DNA from: a virus | Taxonomy: Duplodnaviria; Heunggongvirae; Uroviricota; Caudoviricetes | Virus record (IMG/VR): IMGVR_UViG_3300046003_006038 | Span: 1-64,000 of that record | DNA: 64,000 nt | Direction: 5' to 3' (one strand) | In this document: positions 50,226-64,000 of the stretch, in pieces | How the letters are laid out: the number at the start of each line of letters is the position of its first letter | How positions within the stretch are numbered: position 1 is the stretch's first letter | Program-made: the position numbers and the translations under genes | The notes under the pieces: generated by a model | Told to the model about the DNA's origin: nothing | What the model saw: only the letters and a program-made list of their open reading frames with translations | Databases searched by the model: none

Positions 50226-51860
50226 TTACATGAACATGCTAGGATCTACTCCTGCGTCTTGTCCATCTTTCTCTTTTATACTTGTGATAATACATTCTGT
50301 AATTAACATTGTTCCTGCTACTGATGCTGCATTCTCTAAAGCCAGTCTTGTTACTTTAGTTGGATCGATGATTCCTTCTGTGAGCATATTTACATACTCT
50401 CCAACTCTAGGATTAAACCCTTGCCAAATATCTCCGTCTACTAACCTTACCATTCTTTCGTTAATAGTGTCTTGAGTTTCACCTGCATTTAAAAGTATCT
50501 GTTCGAATGGCTTTGTAATTGCTCTCCTTACGATATCGAATCCTTTTTGTTGATCTGGATGAGAAGCTACTGATGGATTGTTGTATAGGTATGCTGCTGC
50601 ATTTAGTAAAGCGATACCACCACCTGGTAAGATTCCTTCTTGAAGTGCTGCTTTAGTTGCATGAAGAGCATCATCTACTCTATCTTTCTTCTCTTTCATT
50701 TCAACTTCCGTATGACCTCCGACATGAATCATAGCTACTCCTCCTATAAGTTTTGCCAATCTGTCCTGTAAGATTTCTTTCTCGTAAGGTGAAACTGTAT
50801 TATCGATTTGTTCTTTTAACTCTTCGATTCTTTTTGTAATAGCTTCTTCAGATCCTTTCCCATCTACAATGGTAGTATCATCTTTACCTACTGTTACTTT
50901 TCTAGACTTACCAAACCATTCTAAGTTGAATTTGTCTAGCTTCATTCCTTTCTCTTCTGATACAACTGTACCCCCTGTCAAAGCTGCAATGTCTTCTAGC
51001 ATAGCTTTCTTCTTGTCTCCAAATTCAGGAGCTTTAACTGCTACTACTCTCAAGATACCTCTCATCTTGTTTACAACAAGTGTTGATAAAGCCTCTCCAT
51101 CAATATCGTCTGCAATGATAAGCAAGTCTTTATTTTGTTGTGATACTGATTCTAATAATGGAAGCATCTCTTTTACATGTTGGATTCTTTTATCTGTGAT
51201 AAGAATTAAGGGATTGTTTAGCACTGAAGTCATGGTACTATTATCTGTAACAAAGTATGGAGATTTATATCCTCTATTGAATTGCATACCCTCTACAGTT
51301 TCAAGATAAGTCTCTCCTGTTTTAGATTCTTCAATAGTTACTAATCCATCTCTACCAACTTTATCCATTGCTGTTGCAATAAGATTTCCTACCTCTGGAT
51401 CGTTGTTACCTGAGATTGTTGCTACTTGTTTGATTTGCTCTTCATCTGTGATGTCCTTCGAGTATTGATCTCTCAAGTAGTTGACTACTGCTTTAGTTGC
51501 AATGTCGATACCTCGCTTTACTTCTACTGCATTTGAGTTATCCAACTCGGCTAAACCTTGTTTGTAAATCTCTCTTGCAAGTAATGTTGCTGTTGTAGTT
51601 CCATCCCCAGCCAATCTTGCTGATTCGATTGCAACTTGTTTTACAGCTTGTGCTCCAGTATTTTCGATTGGATCTTCCAATACTACTTCTTTTGCTACTG
51701 TTACACCATCCTTTGTTGATGTTGGATTACCTCCCTGTTGTTGAATGAATACATTCCTACCTGAAGGCCCTAATGTACATACAACTGCGTCCGCTAACTG
51801 GTCTACTCCTGAAAGTAGCTTCTCTCTGGCTTCTTTTGAAAAACTAATTTGTTTACTCAT
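50226..51860 (-). CDS. groEL: chaperonin GroEL (Cpn60)
   Basis: TLGPSGRNV, AGDGTTTATLLA, C-terminal ...GGMFM-like tail; collinear with bacterial GroEL. Confidence 0.9.
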   Translation of the reverse strand: MSKQISFSKEAREKLLSGVDQLADAVVCTLGPSGRNVFIQQQGGNPTSTKDGVTVAKEVVLEDPIENTGAQAVKQVAIESARLAGDGTTTATLLAREIYKQGLAELDNSNAVEVKRGIDIATKAVVNYLRDQYSKDITDEEQIKQVATISGNNDPEVGNLIATAMDKVGRDGLVTIEESKTGETYLETVEGMQFNRGYKSPYFVTDNSTMTSVLNNPLILITDKRIQHVKEMLPLLESVSQQNKDLLIIADDIDGEALSTLVVNKMRGILRVVAVKAPEFGDKKKAMLEDIAALTGGTVVSEEKGMKLDKFNLEWFGKSRKVTVGKDDTTIVDGKGSEEAITKRIEELKEQIDNTVSPYEKEILQDRLAKLIGGVAMIHVGGHTEVEMKEKKDRVDDALHATKAALQEGILPGGGIALLNAAAYLYNNPSVASHPDQQKGFDIVRRAITKPFEQILLNAGETQDTINERMVRLVDGDIWQGFNPRVGEYVNMLTEGIIDPTKVTRLALENAASVAGTMLITECIITSIKEKDGQDAGVDPSMFM

Positions 51861-51862
51861 AA

Positions 51863-52168
51863 CTACTCTTGTGATTCTTTAATTGTTGCTAAGATCTCTC
51901 TGTCTGGTGTAATAAAGTATTCCTCTCCTTCAAAATCAATTCGTAACGAACCGATCTTAGGTACTAGTATTACATCTCCTACTTTAGCTTTGACTTCTAT
52001 CCATGTACCGAACTCTGATTGTCGACCTGGACCTACTGCGATAACTTCTCCCATTTCTGGTTTTTCTTTTCCCATGTCCGGAATAATAATCGTTCCGTAC
52101 ATCTCTTCTCCTGTCTGTACAGGTTTGATAAGAACTCTATCGTTCTGTGGTAATAACTTTTTTGGCAT
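51863..52168 (-). CDS. groES: co-chaperonin GroES (Cpn10)
   Basis: RVLIKPVQ...GEVIAVGPGR...KVGDVILV; ~100 aa; immediately upstream of groEL. Confidence 0.85.
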   Translation of the reverse strand: MPKKLLPQNDRVLIKPVQTGEEMYGTIIIPDMGKEKPEMGEVIAVGPGRQSEFGTWIEVKAKVGDVILVPKIGSLRIDFEGEEYFITPDREILATIKESQE

Positions 52169-52238: not shown

Positions 52239-52508
52239 CTAAAACTTATTGTCTAGATACGGTACACCCATAAAACCATGTATCCCTTCGTTTTCTAATT
52301 GTATCTCATACTGCTGCCAGTCTTCAGGTGATTGTGTTAAATCTCGCCAAGCAACATCGACACTGTATTTATCTGAGATTATAAAACCCTCTTCGTCCTG
52401 TATAATATGCCCTATTTCTACTATACTATGTAAATGGTACCCCAACTGTTGTATCTTTTGTTGAGCTTGTTGTTGTGTATCAAATTCGTATTTTGCAATT
52501 CTTATCAT
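52239..52508 (-). CDS. hypothetical protein
   Basis: ORF in track. Confidence 0.55.
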   Translation of the reverse strand: MIRIAKYEFDTQQQAQQKIQQLGYHLHSIVEIGHIIQDEEGFIISDKYSVDVAWRDLTQSPEDWQQYEIQLENEGIHGFMGVPYLDNKF

Positions 52509-53869
52509 GATGTTATTTCTGCTAATTGTGAGTCTGTTAGTCTAGTTTTCCATAGTGCTGCGTAGTCAATACTAGCATCACCTTGTTGCCCTGAGTACCA
52601 GCTTCCTATGTCAATTCTACTAAGCGAATTCCCAAAAGTCAACGTGCTCGTATTTGTTGCTACTTGTGCTCCATTTATATATAATTTAGAGTTACTTGAG
52701 CTGTATGCTACAGCTACTCTAACACTGCCAGAGTATGATAGTGGACTTGTAAGTATTACTGTATCTCCTGTAGGTGTTGAACCTGATACGTGCACTGCTA
52801 TTTGTGAATTTTCTTCTCTACTAACATATAGAAAAGGACCTACACCACCTGCCGGTATTGGGTATGACAGCCCTAGAATAATCGAATTTGATGCCGATAT
52901 TGGAGCTGTAGGTAGATTTGCTTGAACGTAAATGGTACCCTCCTGCTGTCCTATTAAATTACTTGACGATGTTCTGAACAGTAAGTCGGCTGCTCTTGTT
53001 ACTGATTCACTGTTAGGTGTTTCGATATAACTTGTAGAGCCAAAGCCTCGTTCAAGTTGCAGGTACGCTATGTCGTGGTAAAAACTTGCACTCTGGTATC
53101 TTCGGGTATTTAGTGTACCTGACCCTGTGGTCGGTACCATTCGTATAAAACGTGCTGTACCACTGCCACTATGGTTAAACGTTATATCTAGTTTGTAACT
53201 TCCTGTATTATCGAGTTGCCTATAAGATGCTGTATAGTAGTCATCACTTATTGAGCTTGTAAATATTCTACTTTCAAAATCAAATGCTATTTGCGGGTTT
53301 GATAGACCTGTTGTAGCAGATCCTGTGGCCCATACAAAACTGCTAAGATACATCCACAAATTACGTACATTACCTTGTCTGACTACTGTGGAAAGTGTGT
53401 AGTACCCCGATCCTGATAGTGGCCCTAATCGGTAGGCGAGGCTTCCTGTTACATCACTTCCCCCTGTTCCCGCTGTTCCCGCTCTACTTCCTGTGTAGGT
53501 AAATCTTGTTGCAGGCAACCCTGCTATAGGTGTAATACTTTGTGTCTGCAGTAAGTAGTCTATACCGTCTCTCCATGCTTTGTTTGCAGACGAAGCAGTC
53601 ACATACGGTGTTCCTGACAGCCCTATTTCGTTCAAGCTCTGTCTTTCTATCAATGTAGATGGGTAGGTACTTCCGGAATTATATGTCAACCTAGGTACAT
53701 CTAGTGATCGTGTCACAAATTGGCTCTGACTTGTAAATACATACCCTGAGGAGTTTCTTACAAATTGAAAATCCCCAGAGGTTGTGTTGTTAGGTATAGC
53801 TGTATAGATGTCTCCTACTTTAAACCCTGTAGGAGTTATTAATAAACTTGCACTCTGTATTAATGTCAT
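52505..53869 (-). CDS. Ser/Thr/Gly-rich hypothetical protein (possible fiber/adhesin-like structural protein)
   Basis: 454 aa; low-complexity S/T/G-rich, beta-rich composition; no motif recognised. Confidence 0.5.
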   Translation of the reverse strand: MTLIQSASLLITPTGFKVGDIYTAIPNNTTSGDFQFVRNSSGYVFTSQSQFVTRSLDVPRLTYNSGSTYPSTLIERQSLNEIGLSGTPYVTASSANKAWRDGIDYLLQTQSITPIAGLPATRFTYTGSRAGTAGTGGSDVTGSLAYRLGPLSGSGYYTLSTVVRQGNVRNLWMYLSSFVWATGSATTGLSNPQIAFDFESRIFTSSISDDYYTASYRQLDNTGSYKLDITFNHSGSGTARFIRMVPTTGSGTLNTRRYQSASFYHDIAYLQLERGFGSTSYIETPNSESVTRAADLLFRTSSSNLIGQQEGTIYVQANLPTAPISASNSIILGLSYPIPAGGVGPFLYVSREENSQIAVHVSGSTPTGDTVILTSPLSYSGSVRVAVAYSSSNSKLYINGAQVATNTSTLTFGNSLSRIDIGSWYSGQQGDASIDYAALWKTRLTDSQLAEITS

Positions 53870-53909: not shown

Positions 53910-56243
53910 TTAATGACCCTCGGCGAAGTTGTTTGCTATCTGCGGTGGTGCTTTTAAGGTTACTCCTGGAAGTTGTGTTGTGTTTTCCATTAATTCTTGG
54001 ACATAAGGCATGAACATTTCTGCTTGATCTTCTCTTACGTTTATAATTAACTGGTCATGAATCTGAGCTTGTACTCTGGCATCTACTCCTAGTTCTTTTG
54101 CTTTCCTGTTAATTTGAATTGCTGCTCTGTTTACAACCGCTGCTGCAAGTGATTGTAGTTGGAAATTTAAACAGTTGTTGATTCCATTTCGATAATCCAT
54201 ATACATTCTGTTCACAGGATCTTTTCCGTATTTGGTTTCTAGATCTTTTCTAAATCTCCAATCTAATACTTGGTCTCCAAACTTTTCAAAGATCTGTTTT
54301 ACTTTTGGTAAGTGACGAATACGTCCTACTTTATTTGTAACAAACCCATGAGTCTTTGCTTGATTGCGTGAAGCAATCATCCACTCTCTTAATTGTGGAA
54401 ACCCACTTAAATATCCTTCAACTAATTTGTCTCCTTCCTTAGCAGGTATTCCCAATGTCATTGCTAATGCATATCCTGACATTCCGTATGCTACTCCTAG
54501 TGAATACGACTTTGCTTGTTGTCTCTTAACTGGATCTAGTTTCTTTAGGAATATTGGTGACTTGGTGTCTGGTGATACTCCGTTTGGATATTTCACAGTA
54601 TCTTGGTCCAACTTTTCTGTCTTGATGGCAATAGTGGAGTAAAAATCCCATCCATTGTTAAAAATGTCTTGTAATCCCTTATCTCCCGATACTGATGCAA
54701 AGCAGTGAGGTTCTAGAGAAGTGTAGTCATTATCAATTAATTTTCTTCCTTGTCCTGCAATTAGGAACTCTCTTACTACGTTTGTGTAATGTACTAGTAG
54801 TGGAGATTCTTCTCCTTCTTCTTTTGGTTTAGGAAGTTGTTGAGCATCTGAACCATACCTTCCTGATACCGTACCATTTTGTTTGTAGTAGAAGTAGTAT
54901 CGTCCATCCTCTTGTCCATCTAAGAATCTATCGATGTATGTTGATTTAATCTTAACTAATTTGTTATATGTTCTAAGATTATTTGCCCACTCGTATGTTT
55001 TAGAAAGCTCCTCCAACATATCCATATCAAATTGATCCTGCCCTTTCTTAGTTTGTGTAAGAGGTTTGATTCCCATATACTTGAAAGCAATCTCACCTAA
55101 GTGTTTCTTAGATTGAATGTTCAAATAGTCACCATCATTCTCATCCTTCCACATCGACATAGAAATTCTAACAACTTCCATTTCATCCAATAGAGAAATA
55201 TCTCCTGTCTGTAAAAATTGTTTAACATTACTATCTTCTAAGTTGTCAATATCTTTTTTACCTAAAGAATACTTTCCAGTCTTTTCACTTCTTGGTAATG
55301 GTAGTGAATGCATGATTGCTAAATTCTGAGCCCAGTTACCTCTGTGTGATGGTGGATAGTTGTGTAATGCTGTATCCACTACCCATTCCTTTGCTTCTGG
55401 AATGCTTAGGATGCTGTCTATTACAATCTTCTTGTTTGCTTGTAGATCTCTTATGATATCTTGTTTTGTTTTTTCTAATAGTGGAAGATCTAAAGCTACT
55501 CCAAACTCCTCCATTGGAACAGTTACTTCTCTGTAGAGAGGCATCACTTCTTCCTCAAAGAAGAACTTTTCTAGTTCTTCCTCTTTTAGTACTTTTATAA
55601 AGTGATTACAAACTCTTAAAGTTAAGTCCGTATCAGCAGCAGCATACTTGGAAAGGATTGCCATATCTGCTTTAAAGATTTCGTAAAGATCTTTTGTAGT
55701 CGATCCACCATTCTTCTTTATCGATTCCTTCAACTCCAACTGCTCTTGGTTGGCTGCTTTTTCAACATCTAACCCTATGTGCTGCTGGATGGAGATTGCT
55801 AAAGGCTTTAGTCCAAACACACCCATACCGGCACCCTCTTCCTGTACTGTATGCACAAGGAGCGCTGTATCTACCCAAAGATCTTCCAGTAATGATACTC
55901 CATAGAAGTTCTTAGTAATACGGCAGTCAAAAGAAGCATTGTGCATTACTAGCCTCTTACCCTTTAACATCGGTAGTAGCTTTTTAGTAATACCATGTGC
56001 TCCTTTTCCGCCAATGGTACATTCCTCCAATTGATTTGTTTCTGTATTCCATTTCTGAGTTGGAAGGTAAAATCCTATTCCTTCCTCGCCTGATACAGAC
56101 CATCCTACAACTTGATCTTTTCTTACGTTCAATCCTGTTGTTTCAGTATCGTAAGCAAGAACTTCTGATTGATTAATATGTTCGATAAGGAGGTTGACAG
56201 TCTCAATACTGTCGACGTGGTAGTACCTCTTTTCTATTTGCAT
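53910..56243 (-). CDS. DNA polymerase I family A with 3'-5' proofreading exonuclease domain
   Basis: Exo I LAYDTETTGL; motif A DNDYTSLEPH; motif B RQQAKSYSLGVAYGMSGYALA; motif C IHDQL. The track start is TTG inside the upstream terminator, so the ATG (MQIEK) was chosen. Confidence 0.85.
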   Translation of the reverse strand: MQIEKRYYHVDSIETVNLLIEHINQSEVLAYDTETTGLNVRKDQVVGWSVSGEEGIGFYLPTQKWNTETNQLEECTIGGKGAHGITKKLLPMLKGKRLVMHNASFDCRITKNFYGVSLLEDLWVDTALLVHTVQEEGAGMGVFGLKPLAISIQQHIGLDVEKAANQEQLELKESIKKNGGSTTKDLYEIFKADMAILSKYAAADTDLTLRVCNHFIKVLKEEELEKFFFEEEVMPLYREVTVPMEEFGVALDLPLLEKTKQDIIRDLQANKKIVIDSILSIPEAKEWVVDTALHNYPPSHRGNWAQNLAIMHSLPLPRSEKTGKYSLGKKDIDNLEDSNVKQFLQTGDISLLDEMEVVRISMSMWKDENDGDYLNIQSKKHLGEIAFKYMGIKPLTQTKKGQDQFDMDMLEELSKTYEWANNLRTYNKLVKIKSTYIDRFLDGQEDGRYYFYYKQNGTVSGRYGSDAQQLPKPKEEGEESPLLVHYTNVVREFLIAGQGRKLIDNDYTSLEPHCFASVSGDKGLQDIFNNGWDFYSTIAIKTEKLDQDTVKYPNGVSPDTKSPIFLKKLDPVKRQQAKSYSLGVAYGMSGYALAMTLGIPAKEGDKLVEGYLSGFPQLREWMIASRNQAKTHGFVTNKVGRIRHLPKVKQIFEKFGDQVLDWRFRKDLETKYGKDPVNRMYMDYRNGINNCLNFQLQSLAAAVVNRAAIQINRKAKELGVDARVQAQIHDQLIINVREDQAEMFMPYVQELMENTTQLPGVTLKAPPQIANNFAEGH

Positions 56244-56285
56244 AACTGATTTTATTATTGTGTAAAGGTAATAAAAGAGCTGCAA

Positions 56286-56768
56286 TTAAGCAACTCTTTC
56301 TTCAAACTTTTTTATAATTACATTTGTTTCTACAGGTAACCATACCCCAATTGCTCCGTTCCTCAGGTATGACATCTTTATATTACTCTTTGATACTCTG
56401 TCATTAATGTAATTTCTCATCTGATTTACATTATAGTAGTATACTTTTTCGGTAACTAAGCTGTAACATATAATCCAATCCGACTTAGTTGTGTGAAACC
56501 ATCCTAATACCCCTTCTTTCTTATATAGTTCTAAAAAAGTTAGACCTGTTTCTGAGATATTTGTTTTAATATCCGCCCTATCCCAGGCATTAGTTTCTGT
56601 GTTTAAAAACTCTATATCTAAGCCTTTTTGTTGGTAGGCTTTGTTTTCGGTATAGTCTGTTAAATCCCGTACCTGTAACTTTTTGGATAAAATCTCAATA
56701 ACGGCTTGTTCACCAAGACCTCCCTTTTTTAGATTCTCCAGGAAGGTCTGTTGTGTACCTGCCTCCAT
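56286..56768 (-). CDS. hypothetical protein
   Basis: ORF in track. Confidence 0.55.
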   Translation of the reverse strand: MEAGTQQTFLENLKKGGLGEQAVIEILSKKLQVRDLTDYTENKAYQQKGLDIEFLNTETNAWDRADIKTNISETGLTFLELYKKEGVLGWFHTTKSDWIICYSLVTEKVYYYNVNQMRNYINDRVSKSNIKMSYLRNGAIGVWLPVETNVIIKKFEERVA

Positions 56769-57694
56769 TATTGTCGTAATGTTTTTGACATTCTACATTT
56801 AATGTCTGTAAAGAAGCTTGGAATTAATTCTTTATGTGAAGCTCTAATTGGATTAATATCTAATCCTCCTCTACGAGTATAAAGACAAGCTACCATTAAT
56901 TCTTCTGGACTGTAAGCTTCTTTTAAGTGCATATAAATCATCTCACAAATTTCTTCATGGAAGTGACTTACTTGTCTATGACTTACAATATACTTTGCTA
57001 ATGATTGTAGGTTAGGAACAACTCCTGCTTTTGGCTTAATGTGAATAAATACATCACCCCAGTCTGGTTGATTTGTTACTCTACAATTCGATCTTAGTAA
57101 ATTTGATTGTATTTTTATTTCATTTAATTGGAAGTCTTCGTCTACTTCTTCTGTCTCTAATTGAGAGGCATCTGAATGATAGGAAGTAAATTCAATAGCA
57201 TCTAAGTCTACTAATGCTCCTAATTCAGCATACCCTTTAAATGAGTATGTTGGAGTAAAGTCTGAGGTAAACATTACCACCTTTACGTCTGTTTGTAGTA
57301 ATTCTGATAAATCTTTTGATACTTTTTTCTCCAACAATTCAATACATTCTTGAGCTGTATCTCCTAATTGAGTCATATTGAATGAATTCAAATACAATTT
57401 GATAGATTTAGACTCTACGTGTAATTTTGAATCCGCTGAATACCAAATCTTCAACATTCCAACCACTGGAAGCCCTTTTGTGGTAATTGCAGATACTTCG
57501 TACGCATTCCACACATCTCCTCCTACGAAGGGTAGGTTATCTTCTTTGATTCCGTACGCTTCTCTATTCAAGTAACGTGGAATTTCTACCAATAGGCTTG
57601 GATCATAAGTATCGCTATAGCCTGCTCCACCTATTTGTCCTAGATGCTTTCCTGCAATCTTTACAACTTCTGCTTGATTTAATTCTTGTGTCAT
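56768..57694 (-). CDS. queF: QueF-like NADPH-dependent 7-cyano-7-deazaguanine (preQ0) reductase
   Basis: ESKSIKLYLNSF matches the QueF motif E(S/L)K(S/A)hK(L/Y)(Y/F/W). C-terminal YTRRGGLDINP. Length ~300 aa (YqcD type). Confidence 0.65.
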   Translation of the reverse strand: MTQELNQAEVVKIAGKHLGQIGGAGYSDTYDPSLLVEIPRYLNREAYGIKEDNLPFVGGDVWNAYEVSAITTKGLPVVGMLKIWYSADSKLHVESKSIKLYLNSFNMTQLGDTAQECIELLEKKVSKDLSELLQTDVKVVMFTSDFTPTYSFKGYAELGALVDLDAIEFTSYHSDASQLETEEVDEDFQLNEIKIQSNLLRSNCRVTNQPDWGDVFIHIKPKAGVVPNLQSLAKYIVSHRQVSHFHEEICEMIYMHLKEAYSPEELMVACLYTRRGGLDINPIRASHKELIPSFFTDIKCRMSKTLRQ

Positions 57695-57696
57695 GT

Positions 57697-58224
57697 TTAT
57701 TTTATATAGTTTAATATTTGTTCAACTCTTTGTTTAGGACTTCCTGTTACTGTTAGGTAATCTTTCCCTTGTACTTTCTTTATACTTGTTAAAGCTGATC
57801 TAAATTGATTATCGATTTTAGTTCTCCACTCTTCGTCTACACTTCTTACTCCATCATCTACTGATGGGAATTCTATTGGAAAGTAAATAAAATGTGTATA
57901 CTGATTCATAACTCTCATCCAAGTATCTAAGATACAGTTATATGCACTATTTGACATCTTATCCATATAAGTAGAATATACTACAAGATCTAAATAACAT
58001 CTATCAAGTATTACATCTTTCGGACATAGTAGAGCTTCTAAATGGAAAGAAGAGATAGCAAGCTGTGTTTCAGAAGTACCTGCCTTATTGATGGGAAATC
58101 CGTATTTACCAACCGTTCTTGTTGATTCATTTATAAATTCATACTCTGGAATGTATTGTTTTAGTAATTCATATACAGTAGTCTTTCCTACTGATGATGC
58201 TCCTACAAGTGCTATTCTTTTCAT
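57697..58224 (-). CDS. P-loop NTPase (putative nucleoside/nucleotide kinase)
   Basis: Walker A IALVGASSVGKTT; start trimmed to MKRIALVG. Confidence 0.5.
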   Translation of the reverse strand: MKRIALVGASSVGKTTVYELLKQYIPEYEFINESTRTVGKYGFPINKAGTSETQLAISSFHLEALLCPKDVILDRCYLDLVVYSTYMDKMSNSAYNCILDTWMRVMNQYTHFIYFPIEFPSVDDGVRSVDEEWRTKIDNQFRSALTSIKKVQGKDYLTVTGSPKQRVEQILNYIK

Positions 58225-58226
58225 AA

Positions 58227-58769
58227 CTAATTTTTTAAGAAGTCTACCCAAAGACTTACTGATATACTATGTAATATATGGAATAATTCCCCAATTTCCA
58301 ACCCCGTTATTGATACCTTTCTACTACGAAGTATCTCTCCTTCATCAACTCCTTCTGTTACTCTATGAATAACACATCCTGAAGATTCTAATCCTAAATC
58401 AAAAGCTTTTTGCTGAGGATCTTTTCCTTTTAGTTCTGGATATTCAGTTATAAGTCCTGGATGTCCGTTGTAGATCTCAAATCGATTACAGATATCTGGA
58501 GGCATAATTCTCAACCATCCATGTAGAGTTACAACTGGATTGATATAAGAACCTAAAGCTAAACCTATTTCTTCTTCTGAAGGTTTATTATCTAGAAAAA
58601 TTAAATGCTTATTCTCCAAAGCCGGGTGAATCTTTCTAAGATGCTCTGGTCTTTCGTTTGTAACTATCATATCAGGCCATCTTCCTAAAAGCTTTGACAC
58701 TTCTACGATCTCTGATCCTGTTTGTGAAAAAAAAAAAACTATCCAAGGTCTTTTTGGAATATTACTCAT
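58227..58769 (-). CDS. PurN-like formyltransferase domain protein
   Basis: YNGHPGLIT ... GCVIHRVTEGVDEGEIL aligns with PurN NIHPSLLP ... HFVTDELDGGPVI (catalytic His/Asp). Confidence 0.6.
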   Translation of the reverse strand: MSNIPKRPWIVFFFSQTGSEIVEVSKLLGRWPDMIVTNERPEHLRKIHPALENKHLIFLDNKPSEEEIGLALGSYINPVVTLHGWLRIMPPDICNRFEIYNGHPGLITEYPELKGKDPQQKAFDLGLESSGCVIHRVTEGVDEGEILRSRKVSITGLEIGELFHILHSISVSLWVDFLKN

Positions 58770-59541
58770 TTTTATTTTTTCTTTTTAAATTATTATACGT
58801 TGTCCAATCTGATTTACTTCGTTTTATATTTAGTTCTTCTATTACTTTTAATATAGGACTTTCGCTTTTAAATCCCAACTCTTTAGCAATCTGTTTACAT
58901 CCTATCCACTCTTTTAAGTACCTATTCTTAATATATTCTTTCTGTTCTTGAGAAAAATTTGGATTTCTTGAACCTAGTAAGATTCCTGCTTCACGTAGGG
59001 CTTTTTGTGATTCGTGCCTATCTTTAACATCCTCTCCTGCTCTTAAAAGTACTCTTTTACAAAGGTATTTAGATAGGCCTGATTGATTAGAGACTTCTTT
59101 TAAAGTCTTTATTTTAAGACTTTTCCAAATACTTAGTAGAACTTCTTGCTGCTCTACAGATACTTTTTTATAATTTGGACTAGCTTCTCCTTTAGGAGGG
59201 GAATATTGTTCAGACCTCTTCTTAAAAATCTCTTCTTTGTTAGGGTGAGTAGATATTGTATCCCCTCCTTCTCCTCCTTTTGCAATATTAAATACCCCTT
59301 GTTCTGCTATATACATTACCTCTTTTCGATTTAACTCCTGTAAGCAGTCTATATGTTCTTCTATAATCCGAAAGGATATCCTTTTTGCATCTTTATTAAA
59401 AATATTTTGCAGATATGGATTGTGATGCCTATTATGTAGGAGTAACGTTAAGTGCTCCTTTACTCTTTGTCTAAAAGGTCTTTCTGTTTTTCCAATATAC
59501 CCTTTTCCTGTTTCATTATCAACTATCTTATAAATTATCAT
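58762..59541 (-). CDS. GIY-YIG homing endonuclease (I-TevI-like) with C-terminal DNA-binding region
   Basis: IIYKIVDNETGKGYIGKT...RVKEH GIY-YIG motif. Confidence 0.75.
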   Translation of the reverse strand: MIIYKIVDNETGKGYIGKTERPFRQRVKEHLTLLLHNRHHNPYLQNIFNKDAKRISFRIIEEHIDCLQELNRKEVMYIAEQGVFNIAKGGEGGDTISTHPNKEEIFKKRSEQYSPPKGEASPNYKKVSVEQQEVLLSIWKSLKIKTLKEVSNQSGLSKYLCKRVLLRAGEDVKDRHESQKALREAGILLGSRNPNFSQEQKEYIKNRYLKEWIGCKQIAKELGFKSESPILKVIEELNIKRSKSDWTTYNNLKRKNKNE

Positions 59542-59589
59542 ACTAATCTTTATTATAAATAGTCATTTTTCTCCTAAACAGGATGTGAG

Positions 59590-59793
59590 TTATATATCTG
59601 GCTTTTCTAATATACCTATTTCGTACTGTATTATGTCATCTTCATCTACAAAGAAGAATCGTTTACCAACTCTTAGGCTGTATGCTGATTTTCTCCCTAA
59701 ATCTAAATTAATGTATGCAAATACTTCTGCATCTACTATTTCATTATCAGAATTTAAAAGCACTTTTTCTCCTATCTTATACTTTCTTTCCAT
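59590..59793 (-). CDS. hypothetical small protein
   Basis: ORF in track. Confidence 0.45.
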   Translation of the reverse strand: MERKYKIGEKVLLNSDNEIVDAEVFAYINLDLGRKSAYSLRVGKRFFFVDEDDIIQYEIGILEKPDI

Positions 59794-60580
59794 TTACAAG
59801 CCAATTGAACTTATGTATATTCCCCTGAACTTTGTTTAAATCTACCTGGTCTGCAGGGTAGTTTATAAGTTCGAATAGTTTTTGAGAGTCTTTATGCCAT
59901 AGTCCCATTTCTCCGTAAGATGTCCCTTTTATAGCTGCTACTACCGGATTTGATGTATCAATAGAGTATATCCATTTGTAATCCGAATAGAAAGAGAATT
60001 CCAAGGCAATCGAACATCCTAATAAATGGTGTTTCTTCTCCTCGTTTATAACACCGTCTCTCAATAGATCTCCCAGTAGCTTAACCCTTCCCATAGCCCA
60101 GCTTACCAGTTTATTAGGATGTGGAAAAGTCTGCGTATAGTACGAATAGTCAAATGAAATTGCAATCATATCTACATTTGCAATCTTATCCATATACTCA
60201 TAACAGATTTTAATCTGCTCGTAAGTCTTTCCTTGAACAACTCCTATTTTCTTTCCTGGAAGATTTTTATACTTGTTATTCCATTCTGTCATTTGCTGTA
60301 CAGTCTTCTTTGCATCTTCTAAAGCATCTGGAACTATATACCAGTCTGGTTTTAGTTCCAATACCCATCCTGCAAACTTCTCTGCATCGAAAGCTTCCTC
60401 TAATTCAAAAATAGAATTATCTAAGATAATTTCTCTACCTGCTTCTTTAGCATCTTGAAATTGCTTTAAGTACTCTGGATCTTCTTCCAGCAAATGTACC
60501 AAACAGTAATCATAGTCTGTAAGAGATTGTACTGTTTTAAAAATTGATTTTGGAGCCTCATGGGCTATACGTATCGCCAT
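59777..60580 (-). CDS. putative DpdA-like 7-deazaguanine DNA transglycosylase (TGT-fold); tentative
   Basis: ILDNSIFEL and SIDTSNPV resemble the two catalytic-Asp segments of TGT (LTDSGGFQ / MFDCVLPTR). Context: queF, folE and formyltransferase neighbours. Confidence 0.35.
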   Translation of the reverse strand: MAIRIAHEAPKSIFKTVQSLTDYDYCLVHLLEEDPEYLKQFQDAKEAGREIILDNSIFELEEAFDAEKFAGWVLELKPDWYIVPDALEDAKKTVQQMTEWNNKYKNLPGKKIGVVQGKTYEQIKICYEYMDKIANVDMIAISFDYSYYTQTFPHPNKLVSWAMGRVKLLGDLLRDGVINEEKKHHLLGCSIALEFSFYSDYKWIYSIDTSNPVVAAIKGTSYGEMGLWHKDSQKLFELINYPADQVDLNKVQGNIHKFNWLVNGKKV

Positions 60581-61181
60581 AGATTTTTTTAATTTTATTA
60601 ACCCAGTGTTGAAGGGCTGCGTTGGTTATGTTTTTTAGTACACAAATTTCTTTCCTACTATATAACTTTAATAGTTCTTTGTATTCTTCAAGTTGACAGT
60701 TAGCTTCATGCCACCTTACGTTAAGGTCTCTTGCGGTCATTTCCCCGCACCTGCTGCACTGCACTTTAGTTTTTTCCCATTTTTTTCCAGAATTCCAATT
60801 TGGCTTACCTGTTCTTGCATTATTCTTTACTATTTTATCAATAGTTTCTTGTCGTAACTTTTTTCCTTTTTGACCAAAAGCTGCTGCTTCTCTAGCTTCT
60901 TGAAAACCTCTTGAAGAAGTTACCCTTTTTTGACCTCTTCCTACCCGTAACATAGCGTTAAATGCTAAGGCAGTTTGCCTGTCTCTATACATTCTCCATA
61001 AAAGCCAGTGAGCTAGAAAATGCTCTCTTGCTGTCAAGATTATTAGATTTTCTTTATCACCAGTTCCTCCTTTGCATCTAGGTATTATATGATGTATTTC
61101 ATAATAGTTACTGTCTTGCTTTGATCTAGATAGTAATTTTCTTGTTTCGATTAACCTATCGTAATGCCATTTATAATCCAT
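60558..61181 (-). CDS. HNH homing endonuclease
   Basis: YYEIHHIIPRCKGGTGDKENLIILTAREHFLAH (HNH motif). Confidence 0.75.
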   Translation of the reverse strand: MDYKWHYDRLIETRKLLSRSKQDSNYYEIHHIIPRCKGGTGDKENLIILTAREHFLAHWLLWRMYRDRQTALAFNAMLRVGRGQKRVTSSRGFQEAREAAAFGQKGKKLRQETIDKIVKNNARTGKPNWNSGKKWEKTKVQCSRCGEMTARDLNVRWHEANCQLEEYKELLKLYSRKEICVLKNITNAALQHWVNKIKKIYGDTYSP

Positions 61182-61227
61182 CTCTTTTTATTATAAATAG
61201 TTTACTTTAACCTATACATGAGCTATC

Positions 61228-61428
61228 TTAATCATTTTCTTGGTTTAAATTACTTATATCCTGAAATATACCTTCTATTTGTGAAGAAATACTCTCTACA
61301 CTGTCTTCTAGTTGTTTGTTTACAGACATTTCTAAAGCCTTATACGCTACTGTCAACGGTACTACCTCTGTCTGCAAAGTGTCGAAGTATATTTTATTCT
61401 TTTCTAAAAGATCAACTGCTTCTTGCAT
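61228..61428 (-). CDS. hypothetical small protein
   Basis: ORF in track. Confidence 0.45.
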   Translation of the reverse strand: MQEAVDLLEKNKIYFDTLQTEVVPLTVAYKALEMSVNKQLEDSVESISSQIEGIFQDISNLNQEND

Positions 61429-61429
61429 A

Positions 61430-61954
61430 CTACTCTCCTGTTATTTGTTTTAAATAAGACTTCTGAAGTTCTTTATCTGTGAATAATTGTCTTAAGTCAG
61501 GTTTGAAATAATTAACATTCTTCATTACTTTTCTATCTCTTGTTCTATAAACGACGTAATAGTCCCCAACTTTTTCGTAATGACACTCCTCACCTTGCTC
61601 ACTCGATCTTTGAATGACAGTTGCTTTAGCGTCTTCTTCAGTTTGGCAAGCTTTCGATAAATTTGATGCTTGAACTTCTTGATATGCTGGCCATATCTTA
61701 TCCTTAAGGCCATGTAACATAGTACCGTTCCCAGTGGCAACATAAGTAATATCGCACAAAGCATCCAGAACCTCAACGATGTCTCCTCTTTCGCAAGCTT
61801 CTCTATATTCTTCAAGTTCTTCAAGGATGAAATCGTATACGAACTCCCACTCTTTTCTCTCTGGTACTGTTGGTTCATAGTTATTAGGTTTGCCCATTAC
61901 GGCATTAAATTCTTCTACCTCGTCAATAAAGGGTACTTTTGGATCTGTTATCAT
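61430..61954 (-). CDS. MazG-like all-alpha NTP pyrophosphohydrolase (putative)
   Basis: ILEELEEYREACERGDIVEVLDALCDITYV resembles the EExxE...E..D metal-binding helices. Confidence 0.4.
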   Translation of the reverse strand: MITDPKVPFIDEVEEFNAVMGKPNNYEPTVPERKEWEFVYDFILEELEEYREACERGDIVEVLDALCDITYVATGNGTMLHGLKDKIWPAYQEVQASNLSKACQTEEDAKATVIQRSSEQGEECHYEKVGDYYVVYRTRDRKVMKNVNYFKPDLRQLFTDKELQKSYLKQITGE

Positions 61955-61959
61955 AACTT

Positions 61960-62010
61960 TACTTTTTATTTAATATAGGAAATTGCCTCCGAAGAGGCAA
62001 CTTTTTTTAT
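61960..62010 (-). promoter_or_regulatory. terminator-promoter unit (GCCUC-UUCG-GAGGC)
   Basis: taggaaattgcctccgaagaggcaacttttttt. Confidence 0.5.
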
Positions 62011-62207
62011 TCTTCAATTACTTTTAGAATTTTAGATTGATTAACTCCTACTACTGAAAAGTTAGACTCTCCGTCGAATTCTTTATAGATTTTTGCTTCT
62101 GCTTCTGTAGCTGAAACTGCATCTACTAGATATAATTCTTTTACTCTTTGGATACGACCTCTGTCGTTTTCGTGCTCCAATTGCACGGTTACTTGCCAAT
62201 AATTCAT
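62007..62207 (-). CDS. hypothetical small protein
   Basis: ORF in track. Confidence 0.5.
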   Translation of the reverse strand: MNYWQVTVQLEHENDRGRIQRVKELYLVDAVSATEAEAKIYKEFDGESNFSVVGVNQSKILKVIEE

Positions 62208-62218
62208 AGTGTTTAATT

Positions 62219-62926
62219 TTAGTTTTTATAACCTTTTGTGAACTGATAGAACTCTGCTCTTGCTGAATCTTCATCTAAGAAACATCCAGTTAACTTTGCA
62301 GTCTTCATTGAAGCTCCTTCATGCTTTACTCCTCTACAGCTTACACAATTGTGACCTGCTTCAATCATAACTGCTACTCCTAGATTACCTTCACAGATCT
62401 TATCTACTGCATTATGAATTGCAACTGTTAATTGTTCTTGGATTGCTCCTCTACGGGCAAACTGCTCTACAATTCTATTTAGTTTTGAAAGCCCTACTAC
62501 CTTTCCATCTGGTGAAGGAACATATCCAATGTGAACTTTTCCTGTAATAGTCTGGTGGTGGTGAGAGCACATTGAGGTAAGAGGAATATTTCCTTCGAAT
62601 ACAATTCCATCATAACCATCTGAAGGGAATGCTGTAACTCTTGTTAATGGTTCAAATCGTCCGGCCCATAAATCGTTTACATAAGCCTTTGCAACTCTTT
62701 TAGGAGTATCAGAAGAGTTCGGATCATTACTCCAATCGCATCCTAAAGCTGAAAGGAATTCACCAAATGCTACTGCTGCTTTGTCGATAATATCCTGCTT
62801 TTCTTCTTGAGTTAACCTTGCTTCTGGTCCTTCTATTAATTGCTTTTTAGCCAATTGAGAGGAGATACCATTTGCGAATCCGGCTTGTACTAGTTCTGTA
62901 CCGTCGATAAATTTTTTACTTGACAT
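62219..62926 (-). CDS. folE: GTP cyclohydrolase I (FolE)
   Basis: DTPKRVAKAY, MCSHHH, QEQLT, HNCVSCRGV - collinear with E. coli FolE signature blocks. Confidence 0.85.
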   Translation of the reverse strand: MSSKKFIDGTELVQAGFANGISSQLAKKQLIEGPEARLTQEEKQDIIDKAAVAFGEFLSALGCDWSNDPNSSDTPKRVAKAYVNDLWAGRFEPLTRVTAFPSDGYDGIVFEGNIPLTSMCSHHHQTITGKVHIGYVPSPDGKVVGLSKLNRIVEQFARRGAIQEQLTVAIHNAVDKICEGNLGVAVMIEAGHNCVSCRGVKHEGASMKTAKLTGCFLDEDSARAEFYQFTKGYKN

Positions 62927-62997
62927 ATAAGATTGTTTTTATGGAGGTTCTACGACTCCGTTTCTATTAATATAACACTTTTTATTTTACTATACAA

Positions 62998-63393
62998 CTA
63001 CTTTTTTAAATAATCCTGTATACTTTCACTATCACTTCTCTCCCAAGGATAAACAATCCACTCTGTTCCTGTTTCCTTTGCATAAAAGTCAGGAGTAAAT
63101 GATGCTGTAGGTTTGTAGTGAAGTGTTGCTGTAAATCCTCCTACTGCTCTTTTTAGTGTTTCTCCTGTGTCGCAAATGTCATCCACTACCAAAGTATCCT
63201 TATTTGTTTTACTTACGTAAGGTATGTTTAATTTATGTGAGATCATTACTGCTGGTATCAGTCCTCCTCTTTGTATTCCTGTAATAGATTTGATCTGTGC
63301 GCCTGATTGCTTTATTGTATTGCATAGGTCTTCAACTAAAATGTTAATATCATCCCAGCTTAAATAAACCTTGTTTCCTACTTTTAGTGCCAT
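62998..63393 (-). CDS. type I phosphoribosyltransferase (small Gpt/Hpt-like PRTase)
   Basis: PRPP-binding motif LVVDDICDTGETL; 131 aa. Confidence 0.65.
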   Translation of the reverse strand: MALKVGNKVYLSWDDINILVEDLCNTIKQSGAQIKSITGIQRGGLIPAVMISHKLNIPYVSKTNKDTLVVDDICDTGETLKRAVGGFTATLHYKPTASFTPDFYAKETGTEWIVYPWERSDSESIQDYLKK

Positions 63394-63674
63394 TATATTC
63401 TCGCTACTGTTATACCTTCTGCTCCTACAATTTTCATCTGCGAAATCATATCATCTGTTGGTTGTTGTGGATCTGTTTCCTCCAACACGTAGTTGATAAG
63501 TTCATCTATTGATACCTTGTCTTTGAATCCTGTCTTACCTGAGTCGCTTACTATTAATTCTAAATCTCCCTCTTTGGTTAATTTATAGTCCCAAATATAA
63601 AGCCCATCTGCTTTTGGGTAACTTTTTGAAAGCTCTCTGTCTCCTGCTAAATCTATTAAATCTTTTAATGTCAT
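63393..63674 (-). CDS. hypothetical protein
   Basis: ORF in track; ATGA overlap. Confidence 0.55.
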   Translation of the reverse strand: MTLKDLIDLAGDRELSKSYPKADGLYIWDYKLTKEGDLELIVSDSGKTGFKDKVSIDELINYVLEETDPQQPTDDMISQMKIVGAEGITVARI

Positions 63675-63689
63675 AACTGTGTTTTTTAT

Positions 63690-63881
63690 TTACTTAATTG
63701 AATACTTGGTTTTACCGTCTGGTGATTGTGCTGCTATTTCTCCGTTTGCTAGAACTGTCAGTTGTAGGAAGTAGGTTGTTAGTAGTAGGTGCTTTACTTG
63801 TGCTGCTTCTATCTGTCCTTTCTTCCATAATGTATGAAGTACTGTCAATGTTTCAAACTGTGTTGCGTTTCTTACTGCCAT
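63690..63881 (-). CDS. hypothetical small protein
   Basis: ORF in track. Confidence 0.45.
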   Translation of the reverse strand: MAVRNATQFETLTVLHTLWKKGQIEAAQVKHLLLTTYFLQLTVLANGEIAAQSPDGKTKYSIK

Positions 63882-63888
63882 TTTACTT

Positions 63889-64000
63889 TTACTTTACTAC
63901 CATTCTAACCATACATGCTCTACTTGCCTCAGGCATATATTCATCTGGGGTTGATAAGACTTTCTCAAGTTTATCACGAAGAGATTGTTTCATCATTTCG
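63889..64000 (-). CDS. hypothetical protein, partial (C-terminal 37 aa; start beyond window end)
   Basis: Minus strand open from the window end to TAA ~63889 (...EMMKQSLRDKLEKVLSTPDEYMPEASRACMVRMVVK). Confidence 0.4.
   Translation of the reverse strand, partial: EMMKQSLRDKLEKVLSTPDEYMPEASRACMVRMVVK

Follow-up and report, generated by a model that had tools for sequence, protein, structure and literature searches.

A probable orthologue of the published fdPreQ1 DNA-hypermodification cluster in a new Immutovirus-type phage

The first 64,000 nucleotides of the IMG/VR virus record IMGVR_UViG_3300046003_006038 (hereafter, the window) were analyzed for a minus-strand gene cluster that adjoins a family A DNA polymerase (PolA) gene and encodes GTP cyclohydrolase I (FolE), the reductase QueF, the formyltransferase DpdN and the guanine transglycosylase DpdA3. 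Judged from its genes, this region is probably (at about 0.85 by our estimate) the orthologue, in a new Immutovirus-type phage, of the published cluster for DNA hypermodification with 7-(formylamino)methyl-7-deazaguanine (fdPreQ1). The fdPreQ1 system was published in 2023 and is not new (Hutinet et al., PMC10516641); the window adds another phage with minor structural differences. An earlier note on this DNA, made from the letters and their translations, had proposed that the formyltransferase beside 7-deazaguanine genes gives a formyl-preQ1-type base (preQ1, 7-aminomethyl-7-deazaguanine). This hypothesis was found to be correct but already published, the formyltransferase being 89% identical to DpdN of the fdPreQ1-containing phage immuto 2-6A (PMC10516641), and the value of our result on this point is confirmation. 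The question at stake is by what means a 160-kb genome comes to have all of its G replaced, before or after replication. The linkage data bearing on this question, which concern the conserved company of DpdA3 (a nucleoside-kinase-like gene, a nucleoside triphosphate [NTP] pyrophosphatase and a purine phosphoribosyltransferase [PRTase]) that is not discussed in PMC10516641, are the only part of the analysis that a specialist might find surprising.

When positions 56000-64000 were compared by megablast with 50,697 phage records, matches were detected only to the Flavobacterium phages vB_FspM_immuto_2-6A, 3-5A, and 13-6C, at 84% nucleotide identity over 72% of the query; the unaligned 28% corresponded mainly to two endonuclease genes and orf160. 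The gene order of immuto was that of the window; PolA, GroES and GroEL flank the genes at one end and QueE and QueD at the other end, with QueC lying 12 kb beyond QueE/QueD. At the protein level, identity to immuto was 97% for the MazG-like protein, 94% for DUF4494, 91% for FolE, 89% for DpdN, 88% for PolA, 84% for DpdA3, 82% for the kinase, 81% for QueF, and 80% for the PRTase; immuto also encodes the ribonucleotide reductase proteins NrdA and NrdB. The DNA of immuto 2-6A resists restriction enzymes with G in their site, its deoxyguanosine (dG) peak is absent, and fdPreQ1 was quantified in place of dG at 345,000 per 10^6 nucleotides by liquid chromatography-tandem mass spectrometry with a synthetic standard (PMC10516641). 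The same study named (i) the DpdA3 subfamily, comprising immuto, Cellulophaga phage phiST (with 2'-deoxy-7-deazaguanosine, dDG) and Campylobacter phage CP220 (with 2'-deoxy-7-amido-7-deazaguanosine, dADG); and (ii) the formyltransferase DpdN, of which only four sequences were found there.

The gene at 59777-60580 (minus strand) is supported as encoding a DpdA3-family protein of the tRNA-guanine transglycosylase (TGT) fold, as the earlier note had suspected. Its 267-residue product shared 84% identity with the protein annotated as DpdA in immuto 2-6A and 38% with CP220 gp056, and a 62-sequence DpdA3 family profile (A1) aligned with phiST CGPG_00065 at 98.6% by hhalign (E 7.5e-16); for the phiST member, Hutinet et al. 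give 98.8% by HHpred (PMC10516641). Standard profile searches did not bear out the TGT assignment, as no Pfam or NCBIfam match was obtained, including none to Pfam TGT (PF01702), whereas the predicted fold was TGT-like. Fold searches were needed because the family profile retrieved nothing from PDB sequences at E values up to 10 and hhalign with a single E. coli TGT sequence gave a weak match (E 0.028). The AlphaFold model (pLDDT 95, pTM 0.92) predicts a TIM-barrel TGT fold, and when searched with Foldseek against the PDB its best 50 matches were all TGTs (top E 1.3e-8, probability 1.0), with the DNA insertase DpdA as the best structural match. The family-invariant residues D54 (LDNS), D85 (VPD), Q116-G117, H185-LLG, and D208 (DTSNP) follow the order seen in E. 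coli TGT (D89 of TDSGG, D143, GIIQG, LMGVG, and D264 of FDCV), a correspondence drawn at the level of motifs and not by superposition, in which GVVQG and HLLG of DpdA3 parallel GIIQG and LMGVG. The C-terminus ends 59 residues after D208 and carries no CxCxxC...H zinc site, cysteine occurring only at positions 26, 126, and 189. All 89 homologues examined for charge were acidic (median isoelectric point 5.3, net charge -11), and about 3,600 metagenomic homologues of DpdA3 were detected.

The formyltransferase gene (58227-58769, minus strand; counterpart immuto26A_67, which is DpdN) matched Pfam Formyl_trans_N at 2.1e-13 and 50.9 bits (cut-off 26.1). Against the PurN equivalog TIGR00639 it scored 53.5 bits, with only residues 58-155 aligning; because this is far under the cut-off of 150.1, DpdN is placed in the Formyl_trans_N fold family but is not PurN, the glycinamide ribonucleotide transformylase. 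The two enzymes share the fold and the Asn-His-Asp catalytic set, since N106, H108 and D144 of E. coli PurN align with N101, H103, and D142 of DpdN, which are kept in at least 98% of 58 distinct homologues. They differ in length (180 residues for DpdN versus 212 for PurN) and in two DpdN features, a YPxLKGKDPQ insert common to the DpdN sequences and a conserved Glu in place of Asn13 of the PurN phosphate loop. DpdN may keep that phosphate loop and so may act on a nucleotide: the loop shape is kept, but Asn13 is replaced. From its sequence DpdN is predicted to add a formyl group to the aminomethyl moiety of preQ1 or of the corresponding deoxynucleoside, dPreQ1. A physical or functional link between DpdA3 and DpdN is supported by a fusion in one metagenomic lineage (P0145, contig L009, 5185-6468), in which a 427-residue DpdA3 carries a DpdN-like C-terminal domain (E 1e-15). 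The catalytic Asn is lost from the fused domain (ACHKG versus NGHPG), which may be a non-catalytic partner, and no QueF was detected in the 14.5-kb portion of the contig examined. As inclusion of the fusion in the seed alignment caused the second-round DpdN hidden Markov model (HMM) to drift, only first-round matches were used.

FolE and QueF, also named in the earlier note, were both confirmed by Pfam matches and intact catalytic motifs. QueF (56768-57694, minus strand; immuto26A_69), a two-domain NADPH-dependent reductase of preQ0 (7-cyano-7-deazaguanine) to preQ1, matched QueF_N (3.2e-33) and QueF (6.9e-21) and retains the E94-SKSIKLY motif and the catalytic Cys204 in CRVTNQPD. Its score against the equivalog TIGR03138 was 260.3 bits, under the cut-off of 293.45, and since the Pfam domains and catalytic motifs are nonetheless present we regard it as a divergent phage QueF. 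FolE (62219-62926, minus strand; GTP_cyclohydroI 1.2e-44), which catalyzes the first step from GTP toward preQ0, keeps the zinc-ligand motifs C120-SHH and H192-NC-VSCRG. In one relative whose DpdA3 is 91% identical (contig L097, 7886-8884), a GCHY-1 (FolE2, type IB) GTP cyclohydrolase takes the place that FolE has in the window, a non-orthologous displacement inside the cluster. A Vut_1 gene for a YhhQ-type queuosine-precursor transporter was found two genes upstream of DpdA3 on one phage contig (L013, 8857-9483), which suggests uptake of external preQ0 or preQ1.

The earlier note had suggested that the remaining preQ0 genes may lie just past position 64000, and synteny supports this: QueD, QueE, and QueC are present in immuto and many related contigs, and relatives with a 91% identical DpdA3 have QueD and QueE within a few kilobases. 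Exact-protein look-ups for an extension of the window returned only Logan contigs of 1.5-8 kb, and a 51-mer from the window end had no exact match in IMG/VR or in JGI metagenome contigs. Contig L006 is 100% identical to window positions 62934-64000 and runs 506 bp further. Contig L098, which is 96% identical to the window from the PRTase gene to the MazG-like gene and is without both endonuclease genes, carries, directly upstream of the gene that the window end interrupts, a QueE C-terminus with 93% identity to that of immuto. That the cut gene is itself QueE was considered and rejected, as it encodes a 194-residue protein and QueE lies one gene further on. The gene for this protein (window 63889-64000, continuing at L006 1-618 and L098 505-1089) is situated between orf63 and QueE and has no counterpart in immuto; its product had no Pfam match and no match in the 50,697 phage records.

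Four points weigh against assigning the cluster to the fdPreQ1 system: (i) the 64-kb window does not contain QueD, QueE, or QueC, and its own continuation was followed for only 506 bp; (ii) fdPreQ1 chemistry has been shown only for immuto 2-6A; (iii) neither DpdA3 nor DpdN has been shown to be active in vitro or heterologously, and the tests of DpdA3 in E. coli by Hutinet et al. failed (PMC10516641); and (iv) dpdA3 is bracketed by two homing endonuclease genes and has 81% nucleotide identity to L098, with flanks at 93-96%. Despite this divergence the dpdA3 reading frame is intact and retains all family-invariant residues, and the pattern of the segment looks like endonuclease-driven mosaicism or co-conversion. 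The two endonuclease genes are free-standing, are not pathway genes, and have no counterpart in immuto or L098. The GIY-YIG gene (58762-59541, minus strand), which had a weak domain match (6.4e-4), separates dpdA3 and orf67 from dpdN, and the HNH gene with NUMOD3 (60558-61181, minus strand; HNH 1.1e-4, NUMOD3 8.7e-4) is upstream of dpdA3. A copy of the GIY-YIG gene that is 99% identical occupies the same site in contig L096 (11040-11819), though DpdA3 there is only 91% identical.

A comparative survey was performed on 80 IMG/VR loci with DpdA3 homologues 47-82% identical to that of the window, together with five further metagenomic contigs, and the open reading frames (ORFs) of these loci were searched with HMMs built from window and reference proteins. 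In most surveyed loci, with DpdA3 down to 47% identity, DpdA3 was followed by DpdN, the kinase, and QueF, and often then by PolA; this block is widespread in environmental viromes, and in 28 related loci PolA follows QueF. The 80 IMG/VR loci yielded 58 distinct DpdN sequences, compared with the four named in PMC10516641. A kinase gene was located at most 2.5 kb downstream of DpdA3 on the same strand in 62 of the 72 evaluable loci and in 12 of 17 DpdA3 clusters (60% identity clusters); in CP220, an HD-plus-P-loop protein precedes DpdA3 and the homologous kinase follows directly. The NTP pyrophosphatase encoded near DpdA3 was found to change fold by lineage (MazG-like, a second MazG type in phiST, HD, DCD/dUTPase-like, and NUDIX), and the MazG-like gene itself was present in 36 related loci. 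Homologues of the PRTase were detected in 42 DpdA3 loci, in phiST, where the gene is next to a deoxynucleoside monophosphate (dNMP)-kinase-like gene, and within the L009 and L011 clusters; about half of the DpdA3 loci, as well as the 24.8-kb stretch of CP220 that was examined (L003), yielded no PRTase. Seven loci (L036, L069, L072, L080-L082, and L086) lack DpdN, the kinase and QueF coming after DpdA3, and predict plain dPreQ1 from a DpdA3-type enzyme. Two further loci with DpdA3, the kinase, and QueF but without DpdN (L011, 11738-12865 and 13528-13977; L017, 3327-4853) encode proteins with GNAT acetyltransferase domains between DpdA3 and QueF, and their base may be an acylated (e.g., N-acetyl) preQ1 that is not listed in PMC10516641. 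A clean replacement of DpdN by GNAT was rejected for L017, where the protein is 508 residues long and other ORFs are interposed.

The P-loop kinase, MazG-like protein, and PRTase had been put forward in the earlier note as possible nucleotide-pool steps; their conserved linkage in many independent loci favors this idea but does not prove it. The kinase gene (57697-58251, minus strand; AAA_28 2.1e-14; immuto26A_68) probably starts at an ATG at 58224, where an identical 175-residue database protein (P0241) begins, and its product was 33% identical (E 3e-20) to CP220 gp057, encoded directly after the CP220 DpdA3. The kinase model (pLDDT 84) was most similar by Foldseek to deoxyadenosine kinase, the ribosylnicotinamide kinase domain of NadR, deoxycytidine kinase, and human deoxyguanosine kinase (TMq 0.68-0.73), with thymidylate kinases scoring lower (0.54-0.61), and suggests an enzyme of the deoxynucleoside-kinase-like type. 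The cultured phages with this family were the DpdA3 phages and a set of Streptomyces phages, the latter with no deazaguanine gene nearby. The MazG-like all-alpha NTP pyrophosphohydrolase (61430-61954, minus strand; PRA-PH 1.5e-10; immuto26A_63) matched the nucleotide pyrophosphohydrolase family phrog_671 at 2.1e-28 and has an intact ExxE...ExxD motif. The kinase and the MazG-like enzyme are conserved and putatively accessory nucleotide enzymes.

The PRTase gene (62998-63393, minus strand) encodes a short 6-oxopurine-type enzyme of 131 residues that matched Pribosyltran (5.2e-8) and the NCBIfam xanthine phosphoribosyltransferase NF006613 (3.3e-15), with archaeal purine phosphoribosyltransferases and the E. 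coli xanthine-guanine enzyme as nearest solved relatives and with an intact motif for phosphoribosyl pyrophosphate (PRPP), LVVDDICDTG. Phosphoribosyltransferases are not mentioned in PMC10516641. In Vibrio phage VpKK5 (Queuovirinae; L100, 4998-5900), the 300-residue gp32 annotated as GTP cyclohydrolase has about 115 N-terminal residues that resemble the PRTase (tblastn E 2e-6 against that of the window), followed by FolE; VpKK5 also encodes a 307-residue TGT-like protein annotated as queuine tRNA-ribosyltransferase, and the same type of fusion was detected in similar Vibrio, Pseudomonas, Stenotrophomonas, and Sphingomonas phages. A Pseudomonas phage of the Queuovirinae has only about 16.5% of its G replaced, within a GA motif (PMC10484667). 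The fusion, taken with this partial replacement in one such phage, favors a salvage of guanine to GMP that feeds FolE. Most likely, then, the PRTase converts the released guanine back to GMP, which would supply GTP for FolE.

The cluster suggests the following pathway. FolE together with QueD, QueE, and QueC, which would lie just outside the window, would convert GTP to preQ0, and QueF would reduce preQ0 to preQ1. DpdN would then move a formyl group, presumably from a formyl-folate donor, to the aminomethyl nitrogen either before or after insertion of the base, and DpdA3 would exchange guanine for the 7-deazaguanine base. The virion DNA of the window phage would thereby contain fdPreQ1 for G, as in immuto 2-6A, and would be predicted to resist restriction enzymes with G in their sites.

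The published view is that DpdA3 acts on DNA, and insertion after replication was inferred by the authors of PMC10516641 because each of these phages encodes a DpdA. An alternative, unproven as well and tentatively held here as the less probable of the two, keeps the same genes and final base and places the exchange before replication, at the level of nucleosides or nucleotides, by a logic like that of phage T4 with hydroxymethylcytosine (hmC). In the T4 pathway, the dCTPase gp56, the dCMP hydroxymethylase gp42, and the dNMP kinase gp1 act together. By analogy, (i) the MazG-like enzyme (elsewhere HD, DCD-like, or NUDIX) would hydrolyze dGTP and keep it out of the dNTP pool; (ii) DpdA3 would swap guanine for preQ1 or formyl-preQ1 on deoxyguanosine or dGMP; (iii) the deoxynucleoside-kinase-like enzyme would phosphorylate the product, cellular kinases would finish the triphosphate, and PolA would incorporate it; and (iv) the PRTase would salvage the liberated guanine as GMP for FolE. 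An NTP pyrophosphatase and a kinase were indeed found to be encoded with the base-changing enzyme, in a linkage to DpdA3 that is conserved.

Several observations are in keeping with such a pre-replicative exchange. Replacement of G was complete in all DpdA3 phages tested, whereas other DpdA subfamilies reach no more than about 30%; infected cells reportedly contained the ADG nucleoside; and DpdA3 alone failed in E. coli, where its activity was not demonstrable (all PMC10516641). A modified-dGTP route had been proposed earlier for Campylobacter phages (PMC6884629). To these can be added the bare 267-residue barrel without a zinc subdomain, acidic in all 89 homologues, although an overall acidic charge is compatible with DNA binding; the kinase linkage in 62 of 72 loci and 12 of 17 clusters, CP220 included, although the other five clusters, phiST among them, have no kinase nearby and in nine loci DpdN abuts QueF with no room for one; and the structural proximity of the modeled kinase to deoxynucleoside kinases and to the ribosylnicotinamide kinase domain of NadR, although its family also occurs in the Streptomyces phages without nearby deazaguanine genes. 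Similarly, NTP pyrophosphatases of four or five folds accompany DpdA3 across lineages, yet MazG-like genes are common in phage replication modules. Counter to the pre-replicative scheme, every characterized TGT-family enzyme works on a polynucleotide, and the best structural match of DpdA3 is itself a DNA insertase. With the linkage data and the stripped-down, acidic DpdA3 in hand, exchange before versus after replication is now directly testable.

A second alternative, which we consider unlikely, makes the PRTase the point of entry into nucleotides: a free 7-deazaguanine base would be joined to PRPP and would reach the DNA by way of the kinase, the phage ribonucleotide reductase, and PolA, while DpdA3 would only mop up residual G. 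In toyocamycin and tubercidin biosynthesis, ToyH and TubE join a 7-deazaguanine-type base to PRPP. The intact PRPP motif of a 6-oxopurine-type PRTase adjoining FolE, its homologues in 42 DpdA3 loci, in phiST (beside the dNMP-kinase-like gene), and in the L009 and L011 clusters, and the NrdA and NrdB of immuto are consistent with this route. However, about half of the DpdA3 loci and the CP220 region examined yielded no such enzyme, the kinase model resembles a nucleoside kinase and not a nucleoside monophosphate kinase, and the FolE fusion in VpKK5-type Queuovirinae, one of which replaces only about 16.5% of its G (PMC10484667), fits salvage better. It is very improbable that the genes are auxiliary metabolic genes only, with FolE and QueF, which belong to ordinary queuosine-pathway families, boosting host queuosine-tRNA and the formyltransferase, which PHROGs labels cyanobacterial-type PurN, serving purine synthesis as in cyanophages, given the PurN score of 53.5 against 150.1 bits, the fixed position of the formyltransferase, which in dozens of loci lies between DpdA3 and kinase/QueF, with a DpdA3 fusion in one lineage, a transglycosylase that is DpdA-type and not a tRNA TGT, and the fully modified DNA of the close relative immuto 2-6A (PMC10516641).

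All ORFs named in the earlier note were found at the positions it had given, on the minus strand. The relevant ORFs between 50000 and 64000 are all on this strand and tightly packed (intergenic gaps of -23 to 71 nt), and matches in Pfam and NCBIfam to QueF, FolE, Formyl_trans_N, a purine-type PRTase, an AAA_28 kinase, and PRA-PH/MazG-like were obtained at E values of 1e-8 to 1e-77. In the direction of transcription, the order is orf63, orf93, PRTase, FolE, DUF4494, MazG-like, orf66, and HNH endonuclease, followed by DpdA3, orf67, GIY-YIG endonuclease, DpdN, P-loop kinase, QueF, orf160, and PolA. The small conserved ORFs orf63 (63690-63881; 63 residues, 65% identical to immuto26A_58) and orf93 (63393-63674; 93 residues, 81% identical to immuto26A_59) have counterparts between QueE and the PRTase in immuto. 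The DUF4494 protein (62007-62207; PF14902 4.7e-12) corresponds to immuto26A_62, and the conserved 66-residue orf66 (61228-61428), between the MazG-like gene and dpdA3, is 67% identical to immuto26A_64. Downstream of dpdA3, the 67-residue orf67 (59590-59793) is 57% identical to a short ORF at the same place in immuto; it was present in only four surveyed loci, with orf66 at its position in 31. No Pfam match was obtained for orf93, orf63, or orf67. PolA (53910-56285; immuto26A_72) is directly downstream of the cluster, and orf160 (56286-56768; weak KGK match) separates it from QueF. Three ORFs had no counterpart in the compared immuto region (L001): orf160, an 89-residue ORF (52239-52508), and a 454-residue ORF (52505-53869) whose product has a C-terminal Laminin_G_3 lectin-like domain. 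GroEL (544 residues) and GroES (101 residues) are encoded at 50226-52168, as in immuto, at 89% and 71% identity, respectively. A scan for sigma-70 promoters performed at chance level (25 found versus 27 expected), and terminator-like sites were mostly on the non-coding strand; no claim on transcription units is made beyond the tight gene spacing.

Compared with known systems, DpdA3 differs from the bacterial Dpd DNA preQ0 insertase DpdA (PDB 7UI4) and from tRNA TGTs in (i) its length of 267 residues versus 375-413; (ii) its lack of the CxCxxC...H zinc site and of a Pfam TGT match; and (iii) its association with complete, rather than trace or partial, replacement (PMC10516641). The phages phiST and CP220 share the DpdA3 family, a MazG-like or HD pyrophosphohydrolase near DpdA3, and a G replacement reported as complete (PMC10516641), with phiST FolE 69% identical to that of the window and, in CP220, the same kinase directly after DpdA3. 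They differ in stopping at bases derived from 7-carboxy-7-deazaguanine (CDG), without QueF and DpdN; phiST furthermore relies on the decarboxylase DpdL and has its kinase away from DpdA3. The T4 hmC system resembles the cluster in combining an NTP pyrophosphatase, a base-modifying enzyme, and a kinase near replication genes with 100% replacement, whereas its modifier is a thymidylate-synthase homologue acting on dCMP and DpdA3 is TGT-like and may act on DNA or on a nucleoside or nucleotide. With respect to immuto 2-6A, where the chemistry was measured, the window differs in the two homing endonuclease genes that flank dpdA3, in the gene between QueF and PolA (orf160 in the window), and in the extra 194-residue gene between orf63 and QueE; the cluster genes and their order are shared, as is the location beside PolA and GroES/GroEL, at 80-97% protein identity.

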